The notes under the pieces: generated by a model | Databases searched by the model: none | The model's input: only the letters and a program-made list of their open reading frames with translations | Told to the model about the DNA's origin: nothing | Shown here: positions 4,342-61,190 of the stretch, one piece after another | Position numbering within the stretch: position 1 is the first letter of the stretch | Layout: each line of letters starts with the position of its first letter | Position numbers and translations under genes: made by a program | From: Shigella phage JK32 | DNA: 64,000 nucleotides | Strand: one strand, 5' to 3' | Sequence record: MK962753.1

Positions 4342-4369
4342 ATTATACATTAGCTAATCAGGTTGTCAA
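4342..4369 (-). promoter_or_regulatory. Sigma70-type early promoter (TTGACA-16-TATAAT)
   Basis: Reverse strand TTGACA acctgattagctaatg TATAAT upstream of ORF 3776-4309. Confidence 0.6.
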
Positions 4370-6844: not shown

Positions 6845-6872
6845 ATTATAGCATACTCCCTTCGCATGTCAA
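6845..6872 (-). promoter_or_regulatory. Sigma70-type early promoter (TTGACA-16-TATAAT)
   Basis: Reverse strand TTGACA tgcgaagggagtatgc TATAAT; hairpin gggagta/tactccc overlaps -10. Confidence 0.6.
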
Positions 6873-9807: not shown

Positions 9808-10620
9808 TCAATCTACGTTAGTTACATAAACTTCTTGTGTATCAGAAGACTTGCCACCTGAACGATCTAGACAATAGGTCTTATTCAACAGGACGCAGTT
9901 TAGATCATTCCGCTTGATAAAGTCAAGAAGATGATCATTTACCTTTCCCTTATGATGTGTGACATTACTGATACCAAACTGAAAACCACGCGCCATAATA
10001 GATTCTACCCACTGATAGAATTTAATCTCTTCCTCGTCACTCCAGAACTTATTATATTCCGCAGAAGTGATAAGGTACGGCGGGTCCAAATAAACGAAAT
10101 CACCTGGCAAGATCTCGATCTCGTCATATCGTCCAGAAGTAAAATTGATTCGACCGTCTTTGTTTTCATACTTAAAATTCAGGACACGCTCTACCGCGTT
10201 TTCGTTAAAAGTCCGGCGACCAAAATTAGCATTAAATTCACCCTTCCGGTTATGTCGGTTAATGTTGCTAAAACTGTGCTGAATCAGAACAAACAGAGAT
10301 AGCGGATCTGGATTCTCGTTATACTTCTTGCGGAATGCCATATAAGAATCTTTATCATCACGAGACAGACCATTCTCGGCAATAATACGCTTGATTGTCG
10401 AAACCGGATCAGGACACTCGTCAATCGCTTTGTAAGCGTCAATTAAGCGGTGATCATAGTCATTAGCCAGCACATCACCTTCAACATACAGAGACACGCT
10501 CAAACCGCCACAAAAGGCATCGACAAAGCGGTTATAGTGCTTAGGGAAATACTTACTGACACCAGGCAATAACTTTTCCTTATTGCCAGTATAGGGAATT
10601 AAACCTAATGCTTTCTTCAT
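9808..10620 (-). CDS. dam: DNA adenine methyltransferase
   Basis: YTGNK, FCGGLSVSL and DPPY motifs; collinear with recalled T4 Dam. Confidence 0.9.
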   Translation of the reverse strand: MKKALGLIPYTGNKEKLLPGVSKYFPKHYNRFVDAFCGGLSVSLYVEGDVLANDYDHRLIDAYKAIDECPDPVSTIKRIIAENGLSRDDKDSYMAFRKKYNENPDPLSLFVLIQHSFSNINRHNRKGEFNANFGRRTFNENAVERVLNFKYENKDGRINFTSGRYDEIEILPGDFVYLDPPYLITSAEYNKFWSDEEEIKFYQWVESIMARGFQFGISNVTHHKGKVNDHLLDFIKRNDLNCVLLNKTYCLDRSGGKSSDTQEVYVTNVD

Positions 10621-11869: not shown

Positions 11870-12214
11870 TTATTTCACGTTAACGCCGTCATCAATCCAG
11901 CCGACGCTATTTGGTTTAACAGTTTTACCATAGGATGCATACTTAATCAAGCATGGTTTAACATCATTATCAAATCTTCCTAAACGTACTCCAAAATCAG
12001 GAATATCCATGTATGCGGCTTTATATCCCCATGTGCCATATTCAGAATCAATCTCAACCGGACGGCCTTTAAAAGCATACACTACACCGTGACGGTCAAC
12101 GATAACATAGCAATAGCCAGCCGGAAGATACACAGTTTCGCCGTAAACTTTAACTGGAGTAGCAGAAGAGATAAACATAATATAATCCTCACATCGTTCA
12201 TTTGATGCGGTCAT
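11870..12214 (-). CDS. Hypothetical protein
   Basis: ORF track; own promoter upstream. Confidence 0.5.
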   Translation of the reverse strand: MTASNERCEDYIMFISSATPVKVYGETVYLPAGYCYVIVDRHGVVYAFKGRPVEIDSEYGTWGYKAAYMDIPDFGVRLGRFDNDVKPCLIKYASYGKTVKPNSVGWIDDGVNVK

Positions 12215-12241
12215 TATATGATAACCGCATTTTCATGTCAA
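12213..12241 (-). promoter_or_regulatory. Sigma70-type early promoter (TTGACA-17-TATAAT)
   Basis: Reverse strand TTGACA tgaaaatgcggttatca TATAAT. Confidence 0.6.
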
Positions 12242-14964: not shown

Positions 14965-14992
14965 ATTATAGCACTATGATTTTCATTGTCAA
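14965..14992 (-). promoter_or_regulatory. Sigma70-type early promoter (TTGACA-16-TATAAT)
   Basis: Reverse strand TTGACA atgaaaatcatagtgc TATAAT. Confidence 0.6.
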
Positions 14993-17450: not shown

Positions 17451-19589
17451 TTAAGGATTTCGGCCAGGGTAATGCTTAAATCGACCGTAACCAGTTTCAA
17501 TGCTCATATCTCGTTGACGCACAATCGCCCAATAACCGTTGCAGGAATCTTGAAGATATAGATCCTTACCTTTTAGGAACTCATTAAAAATAGTGATCTG
17601 CCAATCATAATAGACCGCATCAGCAAGACTACCCATCCAACCGTGCGGATCTTCCATCAGTTCGACAAGTTCATCAATTACCCAATATGGACAAGGGCTA
17701 AATTTACCCTTACTAAAATCGCTGAACATAGTAACGATCTTGACTTCCGGTCGAGGCTGATCGGGAATATCTGGACGTTTGTTAACTACGACTTGCACAT
17801 ATTTTGTGTAGCCTACAATTTCACCTTCATCTAAGTTAGTGTTATTGTTTTTGTCGGCAAATGCAACAAATTTGTAAACACCAGAATCGTTTAATGTTGC
17901 ATTAGCTTTACGATATACCGGAACACTGGAATCTGCAATAGGTAATTTAATACCACTTTTACTAAATTCATAGGTCGGCACATAGTTAGATGGCGGTTTA
18001 ATCATGGTTGCTTCCAGCACCAACGGATCACCCTCAGTAATTTGCACCGGATGCGGACCGTCAAATTCCATATTAGGAATTACTTCAACTTTATAGGTTG
18101 CACGTCCTGCAATATCATATCCGGTATGCGCACTATGAGGATCTCGGCTAGGGCTATCGCGATATTCATGAGACCAGATACCATTATGTTCTTTATCCGC
18201 CGCATCAGTAATCTTATATTCTTTCGTTTCAATCGGCAATTCTGTTACAAGAACATCGTTTTTCAAAATTGCTAACGAACGAGTTTGAGTCGGGTCATTA
18301 CTTGCTGGCGGTTCTGGATCAACAATTTTAATAACAATAGGTTCCCCAACCTCAATACCGCTATAATCATGCTCGACGTCATAGATATCTAACATACGGC
18401 GATCATAAAATAATGGGCGAGAAGTTGGAGTTCTCTGCGGATCATCATCACGCGCAGGAGCTACCAACAATTGCAGGGCTACACTATTATCATATTGCAA
18501 TTTCTCAAGACTAATACGGTCATAACCAGGATCACCATATTTCTTGCTTTGTAATTGCGTACCACCTAACATCCACGTAAAGTAGACATTATTTGTTAAT
18601 AAACCATAATGTCGGTTCCATGAATTATCAACAGGGGAAACTGGCATATCAATACTAACAGAAGACCCAGAAGGATAACGAAATTCAATAGCAGAAAAAT
18701 CTCGGCTAAAAAATTCGTTTTCCTTGACGTTAACGCGGAATCGATGGCGCTGACCATCCAGATACGATTCACTACTACCAGGACCATTTTCAACCTTATA
18801 GGAACGAATACAAGCGACATAATCACCTGCATCTGCTTCGGTAGCATGTTTCGTCACATATAAAGTTTTATTCTTTGATTCATAAACCAAAGTACCATCG
18901 CCACGTTCCAGACGATAACGAACTATGGTATGTTCAGCGTCATTTGGGGCATCGTCTTCTACAGTATAATAGGCAGGTGCATATTTTTGTACATTGAATA
19001 CAGCTAAATTTTCTCGAATTGTTGCTGTAAACGGATATACAAATTTAACATCACCTGTTTCGTCGCTTAATTCCATTCGATAAAGACCGGAAAATTCAGG
19101 CCATGCGAATTTTGCAATTTTAAATTCACGATGATCCAATCCCAAATCACCATCCACGGAATCAACTAGACCATTATTATAATACAAGTCAACAGAGATA
19201 TTAGCAGGAATATTACTACGAAAAACAATTTTCGCTTTAAGTTCATCACCAATATTAAATGATGTCGGAGGATATACATGTTCAACATATGGATTATCAA
19301 ATAACTTAAATGTAAAGTTTTCCGTGCCAATATCGATAGAATCACCACTAAATGATGTGTCGCCTAGCGCATAACCTCGAACGTTTACAGACCATCCGGT
19401 AACATCGTCTTCTTTAACGGAATCCAATGTAAATGTCGGAGAGGCACTTGTTGCTATAATCTGGTCATTTTTCTTCCAGACATAACCTTTTTTCGGTTTT
19501 GTTGAATCAGGGCTTTCATCAACAATACAGCAGCTAAAATCGTGCGGCATCCAAATCATATTATTGACCGTGGTGTTTACTACTGCCAT
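17451..19589 (-). CDS. Large multi-domain protein with Ig-like repeats and a distinct C-terminal domain
   Basis: 712 aa; Ig-like motifs DAGDYVACI and DSGVYKFVA; no recognisable catalytic motif. Confidence 0.65.
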   Translation of the reverse strand: MAVVNTTVNNMIWMPHDFSCCIVDESPDSTKPKKGYVWKKNDQIIATSASPTFTLDSVKEDDVTGWSVNVRGYALGDTSFSGDSIDIGTENFTFKLFDNPYVEHVYPPTSFNIGDELKAKIVFRSNIPANISVDLYYNNGLVDSVDGDLGLDHREFKIAKFAWPEFSGLYRMELSDETGDVKFVYPFTATIRENLAVFNVQKYAPAYYTVEDDAPNDAEHTIVRYRLERGDGTLVYESKNKTLYVTKHATEADAGDYVACIRSYKVENGPGSSESYLDGQRHRFRVNVKENEFFSRDFSAIEFRYPSGSSVSIDMPVSPVDNSWNRHYGLLTNNVYFTWMLGGTQLQSKKYGDPGYDRISLEKLQYDNSVALQLLVAPARDDDPQRTPTSRPLFYDRRMLDIYDVEHDYSGIEVGEPIVIKIVDPEPPASNDPTQTRSLAILKNDVLVTELPIETKEYKITDAADKEHNGIWSHEYRDSPSRDPHSAHTGYDIAGRATYKVEVIPNMEFDGPHPVQITEGDPLVLEATMIKPPSNYVPTYEFSKSGIKLPIADSSVPVYRKANATLNDSGVYKFVAFADKNNNTNLDEGEIVGYTKYVQVVVNKRPDIPDQPRPEVKIVTMFSDFSKGKFSPCPYWVIDELVELMEDPHGWMGSLADAVYYDWQITIFNEFLKGKDLYLQDSCNGYWAIVRQRDMSIETGYGRFKHYPGRNP

Positions 19590-45700: not shown

Positions 45701-45882
45701 AGAACAGCGAATTGTTCCACGGACTTAAAGCAAGCGAACGAAGATTTGCAATGAGTCCACTGTTTGACCAGTCGGCGGTAACATTCTCTATGTTCCGTGA
45801 ACTTGTAGATAAACGGTTGAAGGATAATATAGGGAATCCACGCGATCCGAAGAATCCTACACAGAGGAAAATTAATGGCTAA
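42796..45882 (+). CDS. 7: Baseplate wedge protein gp7
   Basis: 1028 aa vs T4 gp7 1032 aa; synteny. Confidence 0.85.
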   Translation: MIKAPSVTSLTIEKLSANQAYITWDDVGENFFYFVELAETRTRDGEIIPVDELSWVNLGYTADQNWFEDKNLFPEYYYKFRVAVAAEGFEQSKWIETEEFQTFKTNAYNFSMMREFNLANEFIKEKFTYDNREYVKFNTDLIQASLMKEDFVFSPEYANMTNISNYIVVDENFHEIQDHIEKVCTDINRTMLAEMNGVLYLFERFQPIVKVSNDKGQSWKAYKAFNDRVGNPVSRTCVYQSKTTTYVLGYDRIFYGRQASDTRWSADDVRFSDDTITFAKVGDENDLGFDVEVFGVFSRLTGDTTKYAEAMACSDDYLWVGAKDVIRRIRLKNTPVDTVQGSPTFGEKIFDPDVIRVTGNDKAVIQKMDVIDGKLLVFVTGEVKQRYQDPTKPENVVPSDDAGVYLIGSDGLSFQRVFGNTPQEREYIQHGFSNMSTNGDEVFISHYNHHFESILPDPETAEKYELGEAVKYSQEPTYLTDKKIHQTTFRASYDDLRIWELGPQAYYNEADYTWMRRNGVRVWITNDNRPLVVYPEVIYTQEVDTSGILDQNRVNREVYDKGTVTCYLNNVKFEGFKQYASGVMFHKNTGEIIGFYQFNYRVRDQVGVYWKPTNVAFVAELQNQVREVPWVPVHYDREQDPDLRPLLNKMTPDSFLLENENFRKFSEYYLQFLSDGSGTYYNKLKNLIKNKYPREQDAYEYLWSEMNKRNIYADKNKRDAVVRFFESRKSDFYSTKGVEASYKFLFKLLYNEDVEIEVESQAGLEYDIVVSSTNIDEDIVGRTIYTPTGRANVTYLEREYEGGRLRWRVTIHNLIGRFEEGQVIKSEKTAFEGMILVGVRGKELLSSSIDYINRSRSQYTMKIKSALPVSRYANDVMRFVHPVGFGFIGVTLLTMFINSGLSMKHTETIIQSLKNYKFDSGLPSVYPDRVADLDVDGNIKKDPLTGKALYLTSPLIGDEFPVPPEYDQENSELFHGLKASERRFAMSPLFDQSAVTFSMFRELVDKRLKDNIGNPRDPKNPTQRKING

Positions 45883-46870
45883 TGAAAATAGTGTGATCTA
45901 TCGCTCAATCATTACTAGTAAATTCAGAACGGAAAAACTTCTGAATTTCTATAATTCTGTAGGCGATGGGGCAAATCAAATTACAATTTATGGAACGTTT
46001 GGACGTTCGGAGCCGTGGTCAGAAAACGAAAAAGAGGTGGGCTTTGCCCCACCTTATCCGACCGATTCAACGGCTGGCGTTGTTGATATGTGGACCCATA
46101 TGATGGGGGCGGTTAAGATTAATAAATCACTTCTTGATGCGGTTATCCCCCGTAAAGATTGGGGTGATACCGGACAGGATAACCCGCGCACATTCTTTAT
46201 CAATGACATTGTTGTTGTAAACTCAGCACCATATAACAGAACTGATGTTGGTAGTGGTTGGATGGTGTATCGAGTGACAGATGTTCCCGATCGCGGTTAT
46301 TGTTCTATTTCAAGCATTGACGCTAAAGTAGAGTGTTTGAAATTGGGTGGAAAATGGACACCTACGCATGAATCAATCGCGCCACCAGTAGGGAAAGGCG
46401 ATTCTATTGATATGGGTGACGGATATCGTTGGGAATATTTGTACACAATTCCGCCTGATGCGGCGATCAACCGTTGCACCAACGAGCATATTGTTGTGCC
46501 GTTCCCTGATGAACTGCGACAAGATCCGGCGCGTTGGGGCTATGACAATGTGATCACCTGGTATAATGACTATAATCTGCTTTATCGGCTGAAAGTAGTA
46601 ACTTTGCGTTTTCAGGCTTATATGGATTCCGCACAATTCCCAACGTCAGCGTTAGTGGGTAATACTGGCTTCCGTCAGTTAAGCATTATCCTTAACCCAT
46701 TGGAAAAGAAAGCACGCCCTAGCGATCCAGACGTTAAAGCGGTTAAAGATAAGTACCGTCCGCAAGACTTAGAGCCGCACTCAGGCGAAATGATCTACAT
46801 GGAAAACCGACAACCTATCGTTCGGTCATTAGATCAAACAGAACTTGTTTCTGTATTGTTTGAGTTCTAA
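45875..46870 (+). CDS. 8: Baseplate wedge protein gp8
   Basis: 331 aa vs T4 gp8 334 aa; synteny. Confidence 0.85.
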   Translation: MANENSVIYRSIITSKFRTEKLLNFYNSVGDGANQITIYGTFGRSEPWSENEKEVGFAPPYPTDSTAGVVDMWTHMMGAVKINKSLLDAVIPRKDWGDTGQDNPRTFFINDIVVVNSAPYNRTDVGSGWMVYRVTDVPDRGYCSISSIDAKVECLKLGGKWTPTHESIAPPVGKGDSIDMGDGYRWEYLYTIPPDAAINRCTNEHIVVPFPDELRQDPARWGYDNVITWYNDYNLLYRLKVVTLRFQAYMDSAQFPTSALVGNTGFRQLSIILNPLEKKARPSDPDVKAVKDKYRPQDLEPHSGEMIYMENRQPIVRSLDQTELVSVLFEF

Positions 46871-46882
46871 GTGTATGATTTA

Positions 46883-46910
46883 AAAGCCAATTCGAGAGAG
46901 TTGGCTTTTT
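46883..46910 (+). terminator. Rho-independent terminator after gene 8
   Basis: Hairpin gccaattcgagagagttggc followed by TTTTT. Confidence 0.65.
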
Positions 46911-46922
46911 CTATTTTGGGTG

Positions 46923-46950
46923 TTGACAATCTCATTTGGTAAGGTATAAT
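46923..46950 (+). promoter_or_regulatory. Consensus sigma70 promoter (TTGACA-16-TATAAT) inside the late baseplate cluster
   Basis: gTTGACAatctcatttggtaaggTATAATa, 30 nt upstream of ORF 46980. Confidence 0.65.
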
Positions 46951-46979
46951 ACACACATCTAAACAACGGAGGATAAATT

Positions 46980-47237
46980 ATGGCACGTCGTAAATTTACA
47001 GATAATTGTGAAGCAATTCAGGTATCCCCTTGCGGCTGGGATGTTATCGCAAACGGTGAGAAGATCGGGGAACTCATCGATCATACTCATTCATCACTAG
47101 CCGATTACACCGATGAACTATGGGAGGGTATTAATTGCGCTAACGTAACTAAACGATTCAAGACTATTGATGAGGCTATACATTTTGTGTATAATCCAAC
47201 TTTCGGTATGTGGAGTGATAGAAAATGGCACGCGTAA
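46980..47237 (+). CDS. Hypothetical protein, first gene of inserted module
   Basis: GGAGG Shine-Dalgarno; MARRK start; 85 aa. Confidence 0.55.
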   Translation: MARRKFTDNCEAIQVSPCGWDVIANGEKIGELIDHTHSSLADYTDELWEGINCANVTKRFKTIDEAIHFVYNPTFGMWSDRKWHA

Positions 47238-47557
47238 ATATTAAACTGCATTACACAATGAATAAAGCTAAGTTTCCAATGCAAAAGCATTACTATGGTC
47301 TACGTGCACAAGATCCTAAACTCTATGGTACTCATTGGTTTTGTAAACATGATAACCAATGGCACACATACGAAGAAATGCACGAGATGATGAAACAGGG
47401 TATTGAATTTAGTTATTCTAATTATGACCATCGTATAACTTGCATTCGAAAATTGAAGCGATGGATTCGTAAGAATCCGCAATTTAAAAACTTTGTGTTC
47501 TTTATGTCTCATGTTTATTTGGGTCATAGCGTTACCGTAACAGCAAAGGTTAAATAA
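47225..47557 (+). CDS. Hypothetical protein, second gene of inserted module
   Basis: MARVN start; overlaps upstream ORF by 13 nt. Confidence 0.55.
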   Translation: MARVNIKLHYTMNKAKFPMQKHYYGLRAQDPKLYGTHWFCKHDNQWHTYEEMHEMMKQGIEFSYSNYDHRITCIRKLKRWIRKNPQFKNFVFFMSHVYLGHSVTVTAKVK

Positions 47558-48396
47558 TGGCACGACTTTCCAAACAAGAACAAAAATTACACGACCGGGC
47601 AATGGAGCTAATCAATTCAGATCGTCCATTGACATATGAAGAAAAAGATTTTTGCTATAATAACTATCAGGGAGATGGTCTAGGTGGTTCTGGTGCATTC
47701 TTTACCCCAGAAGGGCTTGCATGGGATTTTACCATTGATGCACATTGTACCGGAAAAGTATTAGACCTGTGTGCTGGGATCGGTCGTTTATCTTTCTGTA
47801 TGTTGCATCGTTGTAAGCCAGAAAAGATCGTATGTGTCGAACTCAATCCAGAATTTGCGCGGATCGGTAAACGACTATTGCCGGAAGCAGAATGGATCAC
47901 CAGCGATGTATTCGAATTTGAATCAAACGAAAAATTTGATGTTGTAATTAGCAATCCACCTTTCGGGAAAATCAATACTACCGACACAAAGGATGTATTT
48001 GAGTACACTGGCGGCGAATTTGAATTTAAGGTTATGACATTAGGCCAGAAGTTTGCCGATGTTGGTTATTTTATTGTTCCTTCCGGTTCCGCTGGTTTTT
48101 CCTATTCCGGTAGACCTTATTATGACGGGACCATGAAGTCTAATAAATATCTAAAATGGAGCAAACAAACTGGTTTGGTGACTTATGCCGGATGTGGGAT
48201 CGATACATCAATCTATCGCGATGAATGGCATAGTACCAACGTTTTAACAGAAGTGGTTGAGGTTCGGTATTACGAGAAAGAAGCCGTAGAATCTCCTAAA
48301 TCGCGTCCTAACGAACAAATAGAAGAAAGTAAGGAGATTACCTTACCAAAACAGGAAAGCGAGTCTGGGACGCTCTCAGATTTGTTTGACATTTAA
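47557..48396 (+). CDS. SAM-dependent methyltransferase (N6-adenine DNA MTase-like, NPPF)
   Basis: Motif I VLDLCAGIGRLS and motif IV VISNPPFGK; TAATG stop/start coupling; Ser/Glu-rich tail. Confidence 0.65.
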   Translation: MARLSKQEQKLHDRAMELINSDRPLTYEEKDFCYNNYQGDGLGGSGAFFTPEGLAWDFTIDAHCTGKVLDLCAGIGRLSFCMLHRCKPEKIVCVELNPEFARIGKRLLPEAEWITSDVFEFESNEKFDVVISNPPFGKINTTDTKDVFEYTGGEFEFKVMTLGQKFADVGYFIVPSGSAGFSYSGRPYYDGTMKSNKYLKWSKQTGLVTYAGCGIDTSIYRDEWHSTNVLTEVVEVRYYEKEAVESPKSRPNEQIEESKEITLPKQESESGTLSDLFDI

Positions 48397-48400
48397 TTAT

Positions 48401-48426
48401 AAGCCGTCCTTGTGGGCGGCTTTTTT
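48401..48426 (+). terminator. Rho-independent terminator after methyltransferase module
   Basis: Hairpin agccgtccttgtgggcggct followed by T6. Confidence 0.6.
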
Positions 48427-48436
48427 GTATGTATTT

Positions 48437-48444
48437 TATAAATA
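48437..48444 (+). promoter_or_regulatory. T4-type late promoter TATAAATA upstream of gene 9
   Basis: Exact TATAAATA 28 nt before ATG of gene 9. Confidence 0.6.
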
Positions 48445-48471
48445 ATACATCATAACATGAGGAATTAAACA

Positions 48472-49326
48472 ATGGCACAAGTTCCAAAGAAAAGAATAGA
48501 CACGGGTACTGTCGGCAATCCATCGACTGGCGATATCTTATATGATGGCGGTAATAAAATTAACGATAACTTTGATTCAATATATGACGCATTTGCTGAT
48601 CAGCGGTTTAAAGACGTAGACCACGGTGTAGGAAGAATGGTTATTCATGCAACCGGATACTATCAGAAGCATCCACGTCAAAGCTACGCTGGTTCCGCTG
48701 TTGAGATTGGGAGTCTACACGATATCGATACAACTCAAGGCGCACTTATTGCTATTCTACCTAAAGCAAAGGTTGGCGAGGGTGTTGTATTCATAAATAG
48801 TAACGGTAGCCTTTCAACGACGACACCGCTCAATATTCGAACTCAAGCAGGTGATTCTATTAGCGGGTATTCCGGTGATGCTACAATAACACAACCATTT
48901 TCAAAAGTCACTGTTTGGTGTACTGCCGTTGAAGGTAGTCGCGTAACATGGCGATTGGGTATCGAAAGTATGTTTACCGATACAACAACGCCATTAGATA
49001 AAACAGTTAACGTAACTGGAGTAGCAACAAACGTTGCTATTGCCGCAAAAACAGAATACGTTTCCATCAAATTATTAACTACCGCTAGCAATACATCCGG
49101 TTCAAAAATGCGTTCAAGTGAAACGCTACTGATGATTGATTCTAAAGCCGGAAAAGTTTATGCGACGGAATATGCAGTTTTGCAGAAGACAGAAGATGAA
49201 CTATACACGGTTCGTTATTTCATCGGTTCCGGCGATAAAGTATATGCAGAGTATAAGGCTACTGGCGAAAATATTCGTTTGGCAGTTAAAGCCGTAGACA
49301 CTATTAAAATCGGGGTTGCTACATGA
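48472..49326 (+). CDS. 9: Baseplate wedge / long-tail-fibre socket protein gp9
   Basis: 284 aa vs T4 gp9 288 aa; synteny. Confidence 0.8.
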   Translation: MAQVPKKRIDTGTVGNPSTGDILYDGGNKINDNFDSIYDAFADQRFKDVDHGVGRMVIHATGYYQKHPRQSYAGSAVEIGSLHDIDTTQGALIAILPKAKVGEGVVFINSNGSLSTTTPLNIRTQAGDSISGYSGDATITQPFSKVTVWCTAVEGSRVTWRLGIESMFTDTTTPLDKTVNVTGVATNVAIAAKTEYVSIKLLTTASNTSGSKMRSSETLLMIDSKAGKVYATEYAVLQKTEDELYTVRYFIGSGDKVYAEYKATGENIRLAVKAVDTIKIGVAT

Positions 49327-55967: not shown

Positions 55968-56708
55968 ATGTTTAACAACACTCTTTTTGCTCGCCTTGAA
56001 TCGCAAAAGGATTATGAGAATACACGACAAACAGAGATTCTTAATCCTTATGTGAACTTTCACAAATATACAAATACTCAGACGTTAGCCGACGTTATGG
56101 TCGCCGAAGCTATTCAGATGCGAGGTGTAGAATTATATTACATCCCTCGTGAATTTGTCAAACCAGATATGATATTTGGCGAGGATGTTCAAAGCAAATT
56201 TACTAAAGCATGGAAATTTGCGGCTTATATTAACTCATTTGATGGGTATGAAGGAGCGGGTAACTTCTTCTCTAGTTTCGGTTATCAAGCCAATGATGAA
56301 CTAACTTTTACGGTTAACCCCAACCTATTCAAGCATCAAGTAGATGATCAAGAGCCAAAATCAGGTGACTTGATTTATATTCCAATGAGTAATGATCTCT
56401 TTGAAATCAATTACGTCGAGCCATATCAGCCGTTTTTTCAGGCTGGCAAAAATGCCATGCGTAAAATTATTGCAGAGAAATTCGTGTATAGCGGTGAGGA
56501 ATTGCGACCAGAATTACAACGCAATGAGGGAATTAATGTTGATGAGTTTGCGGATCTGGATCTTGCACCGATCACTAATCTGGATGGGTTAACGGATATC
56601 AACTTAGATCAGTACAAAGAAGATAAGCAATTCAGAAGCGAAGGACAAGATTTTATTGACCCATTTGATCCTATTAATGGCAAGGGTTCACCTTTCGCCG
56701 ATTTTTGA
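55968..56708 (+). CDS. 14: Neck protein gp14
   Basis: 246 aa; synteny. Confidence 0.8.

Positions 56709-57581: not shown

Positions 57582-61190
<3,609 letters not shown>

Follow-up and report, generated by a model that had tools for sequence, protein, structure and literature searches.

Analysis of a 64,000-nucleotide stretch of the Shigella phage JK32 genome (sequence record MK962753.1), referred to below as the window, showed that the methyltransferase encoded between baseplate genes 8 and 9 (46871-48471) ends in a short tail whose last five residues are identical to the C-terminus of the DNA polymerase gp43 of the related phage Phi1. The tail is proposed here as a binding motif for the sliding clamp gp45. 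The window belongs to the genus Krischvirus (RB49/Phi1-like phages), and the methyltransferase is the last gene of a three-gene cassette with its own predicted early promoter. DNA modification with an anti-restriction role is its most likely function. The cassette as first described from the sequence was already known and its architecture is explained by the published promoter-early stem-loop (PeSL) model, while the clamp-type tail is a new observation.

The methyltransferase tail and the gp45 sliding clamp

The gene was located at 47557-48396 on the plus strand and coded for a class I S-adenosylmethionine (SAM)-dependent amino-methyltransferase of 279 amino acids (MARLS..., phrog_3820). The AlphaFold2 (AF2) model was good for residues 1-244 (predicted local distance difference test, pLDDT, 84), and residues 245-279 were mostly predicted to be disordered. 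This last part consisted of a fast-evolving linker (residues 245-269, 48289-48363, +; pLDDT mostly <50) and the tail SGTLSDLFDI (residues 270-279, 48364-48393, +), which is the proposed clamp-binding motif. The protein ended in ...ESGTLSDLFDI, Phi1 gp43 in ...KVASLTDLFDI and the Phi1 late sigma factor gp55 in ...PSLDQFYEIEN. The whole Phi1 genome contained 1263 stop-to-stop open reading frames (ORFs) with a minimum length of 45 codons, and among these the C-terminus DLFDI was confined to gp43 and the methyltransferase. The C-terminal 49 residues of gp43 were identical in 56 of 58 Krischvirus records. Comparison of the methyltransferase with a 68%-identical homologue (P0002) gave 74% identity for the core, 24% for the linker (residues 241-269) and 90% for the last ten residues.

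The C-terminus of T4 gp43, EKASLDFLFG, is a known gp45 clamp-binding tail, and the hydrophobic-acidic C-termini of T4 gp43, gp33 and gp55 are interchangeable clamp-binding motifs carried on variable flexible linkers, while T4 ligase binds gp45 via an LDFLF loop (PMC6212786, PMC2988020). The affinity of this ligase loop is in the micromolar range (Kd about 11 uM). The Krischvirus gp43 tail (...SLTDLFDI) aligned with the T4 gp43 tail. The methyltransferase likewise had a hydrophobic-acidic motif at its extreme C-terminus and a variable, flexible linker before it, and so at the level of sequence its tail has every feature of a gp45 client. It resembles the T4-family clients (gp43, gp33, gp55 and DNA ligase) in carrying a C-terminal motif on a linker, and here the motif is near-identical to the tail of the cognate gp43. 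Judged from these sequence features, binding of the methyltransferase to the gp45 clamp is somewhat favoured. A recent duplication of the gp43 3' end at the DNA level was rejected as the source of the tail, since only the last 12 nt were identical and three shared residues used different (synonymous) codons in the two Krischvirus genes.

At the gene 8/9 site, the C-termini of more distant homologues were ...GSLSMFDI and ...TLDFVDFSEI. The homologues of Slopekvirus, Pseudotevenvirus and a Karamvirus-like phage ended in a Pro/Glu-rich linker followed by ...(D/N)LFTF(T/R)IE, and the gp43 tails of the same phages were ...SLNDLFGDW and ...SLNTLFGDDW. Three points weigh against a clamp-binding role. 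The tails of the RB43/KP15-like methyltransferases were only loosely like those of their own gp43. The tail was missing from the homologues of Aeromonas phage 65 and Sinorhizobium phage phiM7, and therefore the enzyme does not need it. Lastly, the tail could have a different partner, such as the host beta clamp.

The first two of these points also speak for the alternative that the enzyme is an untethered orphan DNA adenine methyltransferase, anti-restriction in the manner of the T4/T1 Dam-type enzymes, with a tail that has another role or none. The evidence on enzyme class and DNA context given in the next section applies to it equally, and tail-less homologues were common in bacteria, where, as in Aeromonas phage 65, they stopped at the core. 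Against it stand the five terminal residues shared with gp43 by no other Phi1 ORF, the conservation of the tail beyond a diverged linker, and the combination of linker and terminal motif, which is the architecture described for gp55 and gp33 (PMC2988020). An untethered enzyme is thus considered unlikely, though it deserves serious attention, and a clamp-binding tail is preferred.

The gp45 ligands named in the T4 papers (gp43, gp33, gp55, the clamp loader and DNA ligase) include no DNA methyltransferase, and the literature search found no phage or bacterial clamp-bound methyltransferase, the only example being eukaryotic DNMT1 with PCNA. DNMT1 is likewise a DNA methyltransferase with a clamp-binding peptide, and its methylation follows the replication fork (PMC9690074). 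It differs in being a cytosine-C5 maintenance enzyme with a PIP box, and it is not homologous to the JK32 methyltransferase, so that the resemblance is a functional analogy only. A loose clamp-motif scan of Phi1 also returned ORF185 (L008 record 115914-116126, -), which ends in ...YTLEQLLDGAL and could either be a further candidate for gp45 binding or have matched by chance.

Enzyme family and probable substrate

The original prediction described a SAM methyltransferase with VLDLCAGIGRLS and NPPFGK, and both motifs were found. Alignment of 27 homologues showed that a motif X-like GAFFTP (residues 46-51, 47692-47709, +) was invariant, as was the LCAGIG core of the SAM-binding motif I, VLDLCAGIGRLS (residues 68-79, 47758-47793, +). 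In the catalytic motif IV, NPPFGK (residues 133-138, 47953-47970, +), the N, first P, F and G were invariant and the second P was present in at least 90%. A class I Rossmann fold, the motif order X-I-IV and a (D/N)PP(Y/F) motif were all present, as in gamma-type N6-adenine methyltransferases. The modelled fold with its NPPF motif sets the predicted chemistry (N6 of adenine) and is compatible with either DNA or RNA as substrate.

For the substrate, the matches in profile libraries were compared. The Pfam families MTS (the best Pfam match), Methyltransf_25 and Eco57I all scored above their gathering scores, and PHROG 3820 carries the label "DNA methyltransferase". The best profile in any library was the MADS DNA methyltransferase mad2 of PADLOC (58.7 bits, residues 44-139), with type II DNA methyltransferase models next in rank. 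Alignments to all of these models began at GAFFTP (residues 44-46).

Genomic context favours a DNA substrate. The homologues of KP15 and Lw1 lay between the helicase gene 41 and the primase gene 61. That of Dickeya phage JA33 (gene 234, L012 2501-3670) was fused to a C-terminal PF01555 (N6_N4 DNA methylase) domain, and the annotation of the gene after it was putative DNA adenine methylase. In the JA33 PF01555 domain, the catalytic motif that would be expected appeared degenerate (DLIVFSTVN). From these comparisons, DNA is probably the substrate of the methyltransferase. The earlier suggestion of an anti-restriction or epigenetic role accordingly stands in so far as DNA modification is the most likely function on the sequence evidence, and it does not hold for a three-gene module, as described in the next section.

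An RNA methyltransferase, either an N6-methyladenosine (m6A) enzyme like METTL5, Erm or KsgA or an N2-methylguanosine (m2G) enzyme like RsmC, which would retune translation via host ribosomal RNA (rRNA) or transfer RNA early in infection, is rather improbable. It is suggested by the best PDB sequence matches, which were PH1948 and RsmC, by MTS as the best Pfam match, by the RB49 record, which notes similarity to rRNA guanine-N2 methyltransferase, and by one Joint Genome Institute (JGI) record that labels a homologue 'Predicted RNA methylase'. The rRNA enzymes were also the top fold matches and scored slightly higher than lmo1582 and HsdM, which aligned over more residues (207-215 vs 172). However, the RsmC model (NF007023) gave 29.2 bits vs a cut-off of 295 and TrmN 16 vs 350, and the DNA methyltransferase profiles scored higher and covered motif X. 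The fusion in JA33 and the position of homologues among replication genes also speak against an RNA enzyme, which would have no obvious use for a polymerase-type clamp tail. The similarity to the METTL5/PH1948 rRNA m6A enzymes was marginal (E = 3.8e-4 over 75 residues), and no TRMT112-like partner, as used by METTL5, was found for the JK32 methyltransferase. METTL5 also has neither the N-terminal helical extension nor the clamp-type tail, and it does not share the replication-gene context of the JK32 methyltransferase family.

Several GenBank records label the protein PrmC, and at least four of the listed records say 'release factor glutamine methyltransferase'. The corresponding reading, a PrmC/HemK-like protein N5-glutamine methyltransferase with release factors or a ribosomal protein as substrate, also draws on the best NCBIfam match, which was PrmC (TIGR03534, E = 1.7e-9), on L3 glutamine methyltransferase among the next matches, and on the (N/D)PP(Y/F) motif common to that family. 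The label was rejected, since the match to this equivalog model reached 37.5 bits vs a curated cut-off of 199.1 and was limited to residues 64-137. The second PrmC/HemK model, TIGR00536, gave 16.4 bits vs a cut-off of 115.5, and a nucleic acid substrate is indicated by the N-terminal GAFFTP and by the genomic context. A glutamine methyltransferase is therefore highly improbable.

On the other side of the case for a DNA substrate, the PADLOC library holds DNA methyltransferases only, so that the top score of mad2 comes from a biased comparison. Sequence-specific DNA methyltransferases usually have a target-recognition domain, and none was seen in the JK32 enzyme, whose approximately 240 ordered residues correspond to the size of a catalytic domain. 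For reference, 178 of the 382 residues of M.TaqI were aligned (421 in the full chain). No partner gene was conserved across lineages that could serve as a specificity subunit. The JK32 enzyme thus differs from the gamma-type N6-adenine enzymes M.TaqI, type I HsdM, the Eco57I family and mad2 in having neither a target-recognition domain nor a specificity subunit. The literature search found no methylome or transcript data on the gene 8/9 methyltransferase. In work on the Durham Collection, high-performance liquid chromatography-mass spectrometry of DNA of the Krischvirus TB34 gave no detectable modification (PMC13390438), a result that is uninformative on this enzyme because the report nowhere treats adenine methylation. 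The same report describes canonical cytosines in RB49-type phages and TB34 (PMC13390438).

Bacterial homologues (53% identical, approximately 238 amino acids) were widespread in Enterobacterales, with one identical protein on 887 contigs. The Citrobacter freundii homologue (L013-L016 8001-8717) was located beside bssR/yliI at the edge of an island of small genes of unknown function with HNH and insertion sequence elements. No restriction partner was recognizable there, and the divergent neighbour coded for 242 amino acids with hydrophobic N-terminal stretches and without a nuclease signature. The idea that the bacterial homologues are members of restriction-modification pairs gained no support from this context and was set aside.

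The phage also encodes Dam elsewhere, as the original prediction noted (9808-10620, -; 97.8% identical to the annotated Phi1 dam). The cassette enzyme belongs to a different family, and the Dam family (MethyltransfD12) was absent from its 14 Pfam matches. The phage orphan Dam enzymes (T4 Dam and Krischvirus Dam) are similar to it in being phage adenine methyltransferases without a restriction partner and with a presumed anti-restriction role, while the scan of Phi1 tails flagged no clamp-type C-terminus on Dam. Krischvirus had at least three methyltransferase genes, namely Dam, the gene 8/9 enzyme and Phi1 ORF189 (L008 35298-36014, outside the window). Phi1 ORF189 contained an FPPC motif, typical of cytosine-C5 methyltransferases.

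Organization and distribution of the gene 8/9 cassette

Every element of the layout predicted earlier (terminator, TTGACA-16-TATAAT, three ORFs beginning MAR... of 85, 110 and 279 amino acids, terminator and TATAAATA) was present, all on the plus strand. Gene 8 (baseplate wedge, 331 amino acids, 45875-46870), the late upstream flank, was called as an ORF and was collinear with the annotated Phi1 gene 8, and a Phage-Gp8 Pfam match was recorded on the gene 8 homologues of the metagenomic relatives L017 and L020. It was followed by an intrinsic-terminator-like hairpin (46882-46909) with a 12-bp stem and a T-rich tail (-15.6 kcal/mol, z = -6.1 vs shuffles), which forms the stem-loop half of a PeSL-type element. 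The sigma70 (early) promoter TTGACA-16-TATAAT (46923-46950) matched 12 of 12 consensus positions, and its -35 box lay 13 nt downstream of the hairpin. This promoter is beyond chance, since six exact TTGACA-N15-18-TATAAT sites were observed in the window vs 0.16 expected from shuffles. The other five were all on the minus strand (4342-4369, 6845-6872, 12213-12241, 14965-14992 and 56132-56161), and the last of these sits inside the late gene 13/14 region. The homing-endonuclease gene segC, present in Phi1 near the gene 13/14 region, was missing from the window. A second sigma70-like site inside ORF1 (47167-47195, 10 of 12 matches) was put down to chance because promoter-like sites were fewer in the region than in its shuffles.

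ORF1 (46980-47237, 85 amino acids, MARRK..., phrog_16603) was preceded by GGAGG 8 nt before its ATG and overlapped ORF2 (47225-47557, 110 amino acids, MARVN..., phrog_12630) by 13 nt, and ORF2 overlapped the methyltransferase gene by 1 nt (TAATG). The cassette ended in a second intrinsic-terminator-like hairpin (48401-48422) with a 9-bp stem including 6 G-C pairs, followed by TTTTTTG (-15.9 kcal/mol, z = -4.6 vs shuffles). The T4-type late promoter TATAAATA of gene 9 was found at 48437-48444, approximately 28 nt upstream of the gene 9 ATG. This octamer was not enriched in the window (5 observed vs 6.5 expected), and its function is therefore argued by its position only. Gene 9 (baseplate wedge/tail-fibre connector, 284 amino acids, 48472-49326), annotated as such in Phi1, formed the late downstream flank. 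As previously stated, T4 has no gene between genes 8 and 9; the interval is a 63-bp gap.

The stretch 46700-48600 matched 58 phage records at 92-97% identity, and 57 of them covered at least 80% of it. The best 40 of the 58 were all RB49-like (Phi1, JSE, RB49 and relatives), and each annotated match listed included gene 8, the three ORFs and gene 9. The cassette had been annotated before as ORF140/142/143 in Phi1 and ORF140w-143w in RB49, and RB49ORF143w was listed in 2006 with "Methyltransferase small domain" matches (PMC1524935). About 50 PeSL copies per genome were reported for RB49/Phi1 (Arbiol et al. 2010, PMC2839356), with promoter and terminator activity demonstrated in vivo for other PeSLs, namely 193/192, 206/205 and 211/210. 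A few were described inside the virion module beside genes of unknown function, where the stem-loops keep early transcription from late genes (PMC2839356). In the JK32 unit, the intergenic region contained a consensus sigma70 promoter and was followed by an ORFan that has a Shine-Dalgarno sequence, and a stable stem-loop adjoined the promoter in the manner of the 'upstream of -35' subclass. By its sequence, the unit of hairpin and early promoter matches the published PeSL element. It shares with the PeSL cassettes the combination of a stem-loop terminator, an adjoining consensus sigma70 promoter and an ORFan behind the promoter, and it differs from them in that the stem-loop stands upstream of the -35 box, the gene 8/9 site is not named in the text of PMC2839356, and the cassette is fixed genus-wide instead of variable, with only the small ORFs behind the promoter varying.

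The cassette and its regulatory logic were thus already known, and they are a fixed trait of the genus and not a recent insertion, because the cassette is present in all 58 Krischvirus records, is annotated in RB49 and Phi1, and matches a PeSL. The earlier view of a moron-like insertion had to be given up on these grounds. The morons of lambdoid phages resemble the cassette as autonomous promoter-gene-terminator units within a differently timed operon. They occur sporadically among close genomes, whereas the methyltransferase is in every member of the genus and the cassette is co-oriented with its neighbours.

Four metagenomic relatives with 63-64%-identical methyltransferases had the same gene 8/9 position and the same regulatory frame. 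Three of them (L017, L018 and L019) showed the order gene 8, hairpin, TTGACA-16-TATAAT, methyltransferase alone, hairpin, TATAAATA and gene 9, and the fourth (L020) showed gene 8, hairpin, TTGACA-17-GATACT, an unrelated 154-amino-acid ORF, methyltransferase, hairpin, TATAAATA and gene 9. The first-hairpin sequences of L017 and L020 differed though their position was the same as in JK32. Preservation of the frame at this level of methyltransferase identity points to selection for a separate expression schedule. The separate schedule proposed in the original prediction is borne out to this extent by the promoter, the terminators and the conserved frame. Presence at the same site in many related phages, which had been named as evidence to the contrary if joined to late-only expression, was found, while late-only expression appears to be contradicted by the conserved early promoter.

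The two small ORFs behaved differently from the methyltransferase. Both are narrow ORFans: homologues of ORF1 were limited to Krischvirus and a few Vequintavirus records (a single cluster in a 5.8-billion-protein database), and those of ORF2 to Krischvirus and Vequintavirus (4 representatives among 1.84 billion proteins). Searches of Pfam, NCBIfam, PADLOC and PDB sequences gave no match for either that would indicate a function. AF2 modelling of ORF2 gave a poor structure (pLDDT 64), for which Foldseek returned no match at E <= 0.001. The small ORFs upstream of the KP15 methyltransferase were tried as homologues of ORF1/ORF2 and rejected, since they were not homologous and fell in different PHROGs; unrelated ORFs likewise stood upstream of the homologues in KP15, Lw1 and the RB43/KP15-like phages.

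Two ORF2 alleles were found in Krischvirus, 98-100% and about 71-76% identical to JK32 ORF2, and the methyltransferase beside both stayed about 97% identical. Nucleotide identity to RB49 was 60-66% in the ORF2 region 47256-47436 and 90-100% in the flanks, which looks like localized allelic replacement inside a conserved cassette. In the RB49 record (L022 438-684, ORF140w/141w), ORF1 was split into two small annotated ORFs by an 11-bp deletion/frameshift, so that either ORF1 is dispensable in the type phage or the record contains a sequencing error.

The claim of a three-gene module can be tested against these observations. A true three-component system, in which a methyltransferase lacking a target-recognition domain would depend on ORF1 and/or ORF2 as partners for specificity, regulation or anti-defence, would agree with the overlapping ORFs under one promoter and one terminator, with the missing domain, and with the retention of the whole stretch in all 58 Krischvirus records. 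Nevertheless, ORF1 and ORF2 were both missing from the four metagenomic relatives, which had no upstream ORF or an unrelated one. They stood side by side without the methyltransferase in Vequintavirus FV3, and ORF2 occurred alone in many rV5-like phages; no Vequintavirus was among the matches listed in the methyltransferase homologue search. Together with the frameshift in RB49, the divergent ORF2 allele (about 72% identical beside the approximately 97%-identical methyltransferase) and the unrelated ORFs in KP15, this makes a three-component system very unlikely, and the module could not be upheld. Because relatives swap or lack the upstream ORFs, and in view of the FV3 pair, the RB49 frameshift and the ORF2 alleles, the methyltransferase is, by sequence comparison, the conserved payload and ORF1/ORF2 are exchangeable, variable cargo behind the promoter. 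Such exchangeable small ORFs fit the PeSL shuffling model.

Proposed mechanism and other observations in the window

The preferred explanation is that of an early-expressed, clamp-tethered DNA adenine methyltransferase that would mark replicating phage DNA, and the chances for and against this full chain are judged to be evenly balanced. Host RNA polymerase with sigma70 would start at the PeSL promoter early in infection, a timing suggested by the consensus promoter and the published PeSL activity. The first hairpin would end the late transcripts of gene 8 and so isolate the cassette, and the second would end the early transcript before the late promoter restarts transcription for gene 9. The methyltransferase would then accumulate before or as replication begins, and its tail, on a disordered linker and mimicking that of the DNA polymerase, would dock it on gp45 clamps loaded on replicating DNA. 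The docked enzyme would be concentrated on new phage DNA, leading to prompt adenine methylation. This methylation would blunt restriction-type defences of the host and add to that by Dam, in a lineage with reported unmodified cytosine. ORF1 and ORF2 would be unrelated small early genes that share the transcript by chance. The wider proposal, that Krischvirus and related enterobacterial T4-like phages couple adenine methylation to replication via a polymerase-type tail, with the enzyme riding gp45 clamps left on nascent DNA, is offered tentatively and falls short of an even chance.

Docking of the methyltransferase on gp45, if real, would direct methylation to DNA that has just been replicated, which would explain a fast protection of each new genome copy in phages with reported unmodified cytosine. 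A DNA-modifying enzyme would then join the clamp "tool-belt" as a new class of gp45 client and, as far as the literature searched shows, would be the first viral or bacterial counterpart of DNMT1-PCNA. For the Klebsiella phages KP15 and KP27, Dam and Dcm were the only methyltransferases reported in a study of their DNA modification (PMC5219037). Contrary to that report, the KP15 record annotates the homologue KP15_25 (L003 4001-4777) as a DNA methyltransferase, which may bear on the resistance of KP27 to restriction, so far unexplained. The family has thus been overlooked: it was missed in the KP15/KP27 study, and many GenBank records say PrmC despite the failed cut-off. Knowledge of the target of the enzyme would help to predict the success of therapeutic Krischvirus, Slopekvirus and Karamvirus phages against restriction-type host defences.

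Two other regions of the window differed from Phi1. An ORF coding for 712 amino acids (17451-19589, -) lay within a segment of approximately 1.9 kb that was unmatched in Phi1, and it had no Pfam or PADLOC match. The large terminase gene 17 was interrupted (58076-61187), with an insert at about 58841-60126. The first ORF (58076-59827, 583 amino acids) contained the first half of Terminase_6N followed by a TnsA-like/endonuclease-I-like nuclease domain (residues 485-574), and the second (59808-61187, 459 amino acids) contained the second half of Terminase_6N and Terminase_6C. About 1.3 kb of the gene 17 region had no counterpart in Phi1 gene 17 (607 amino acids), and the terminase call of the metagenomic relative L017 was 834 amino acids. 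An intron, an intein or the insertion of a homing endonuclease could each account for the insert.

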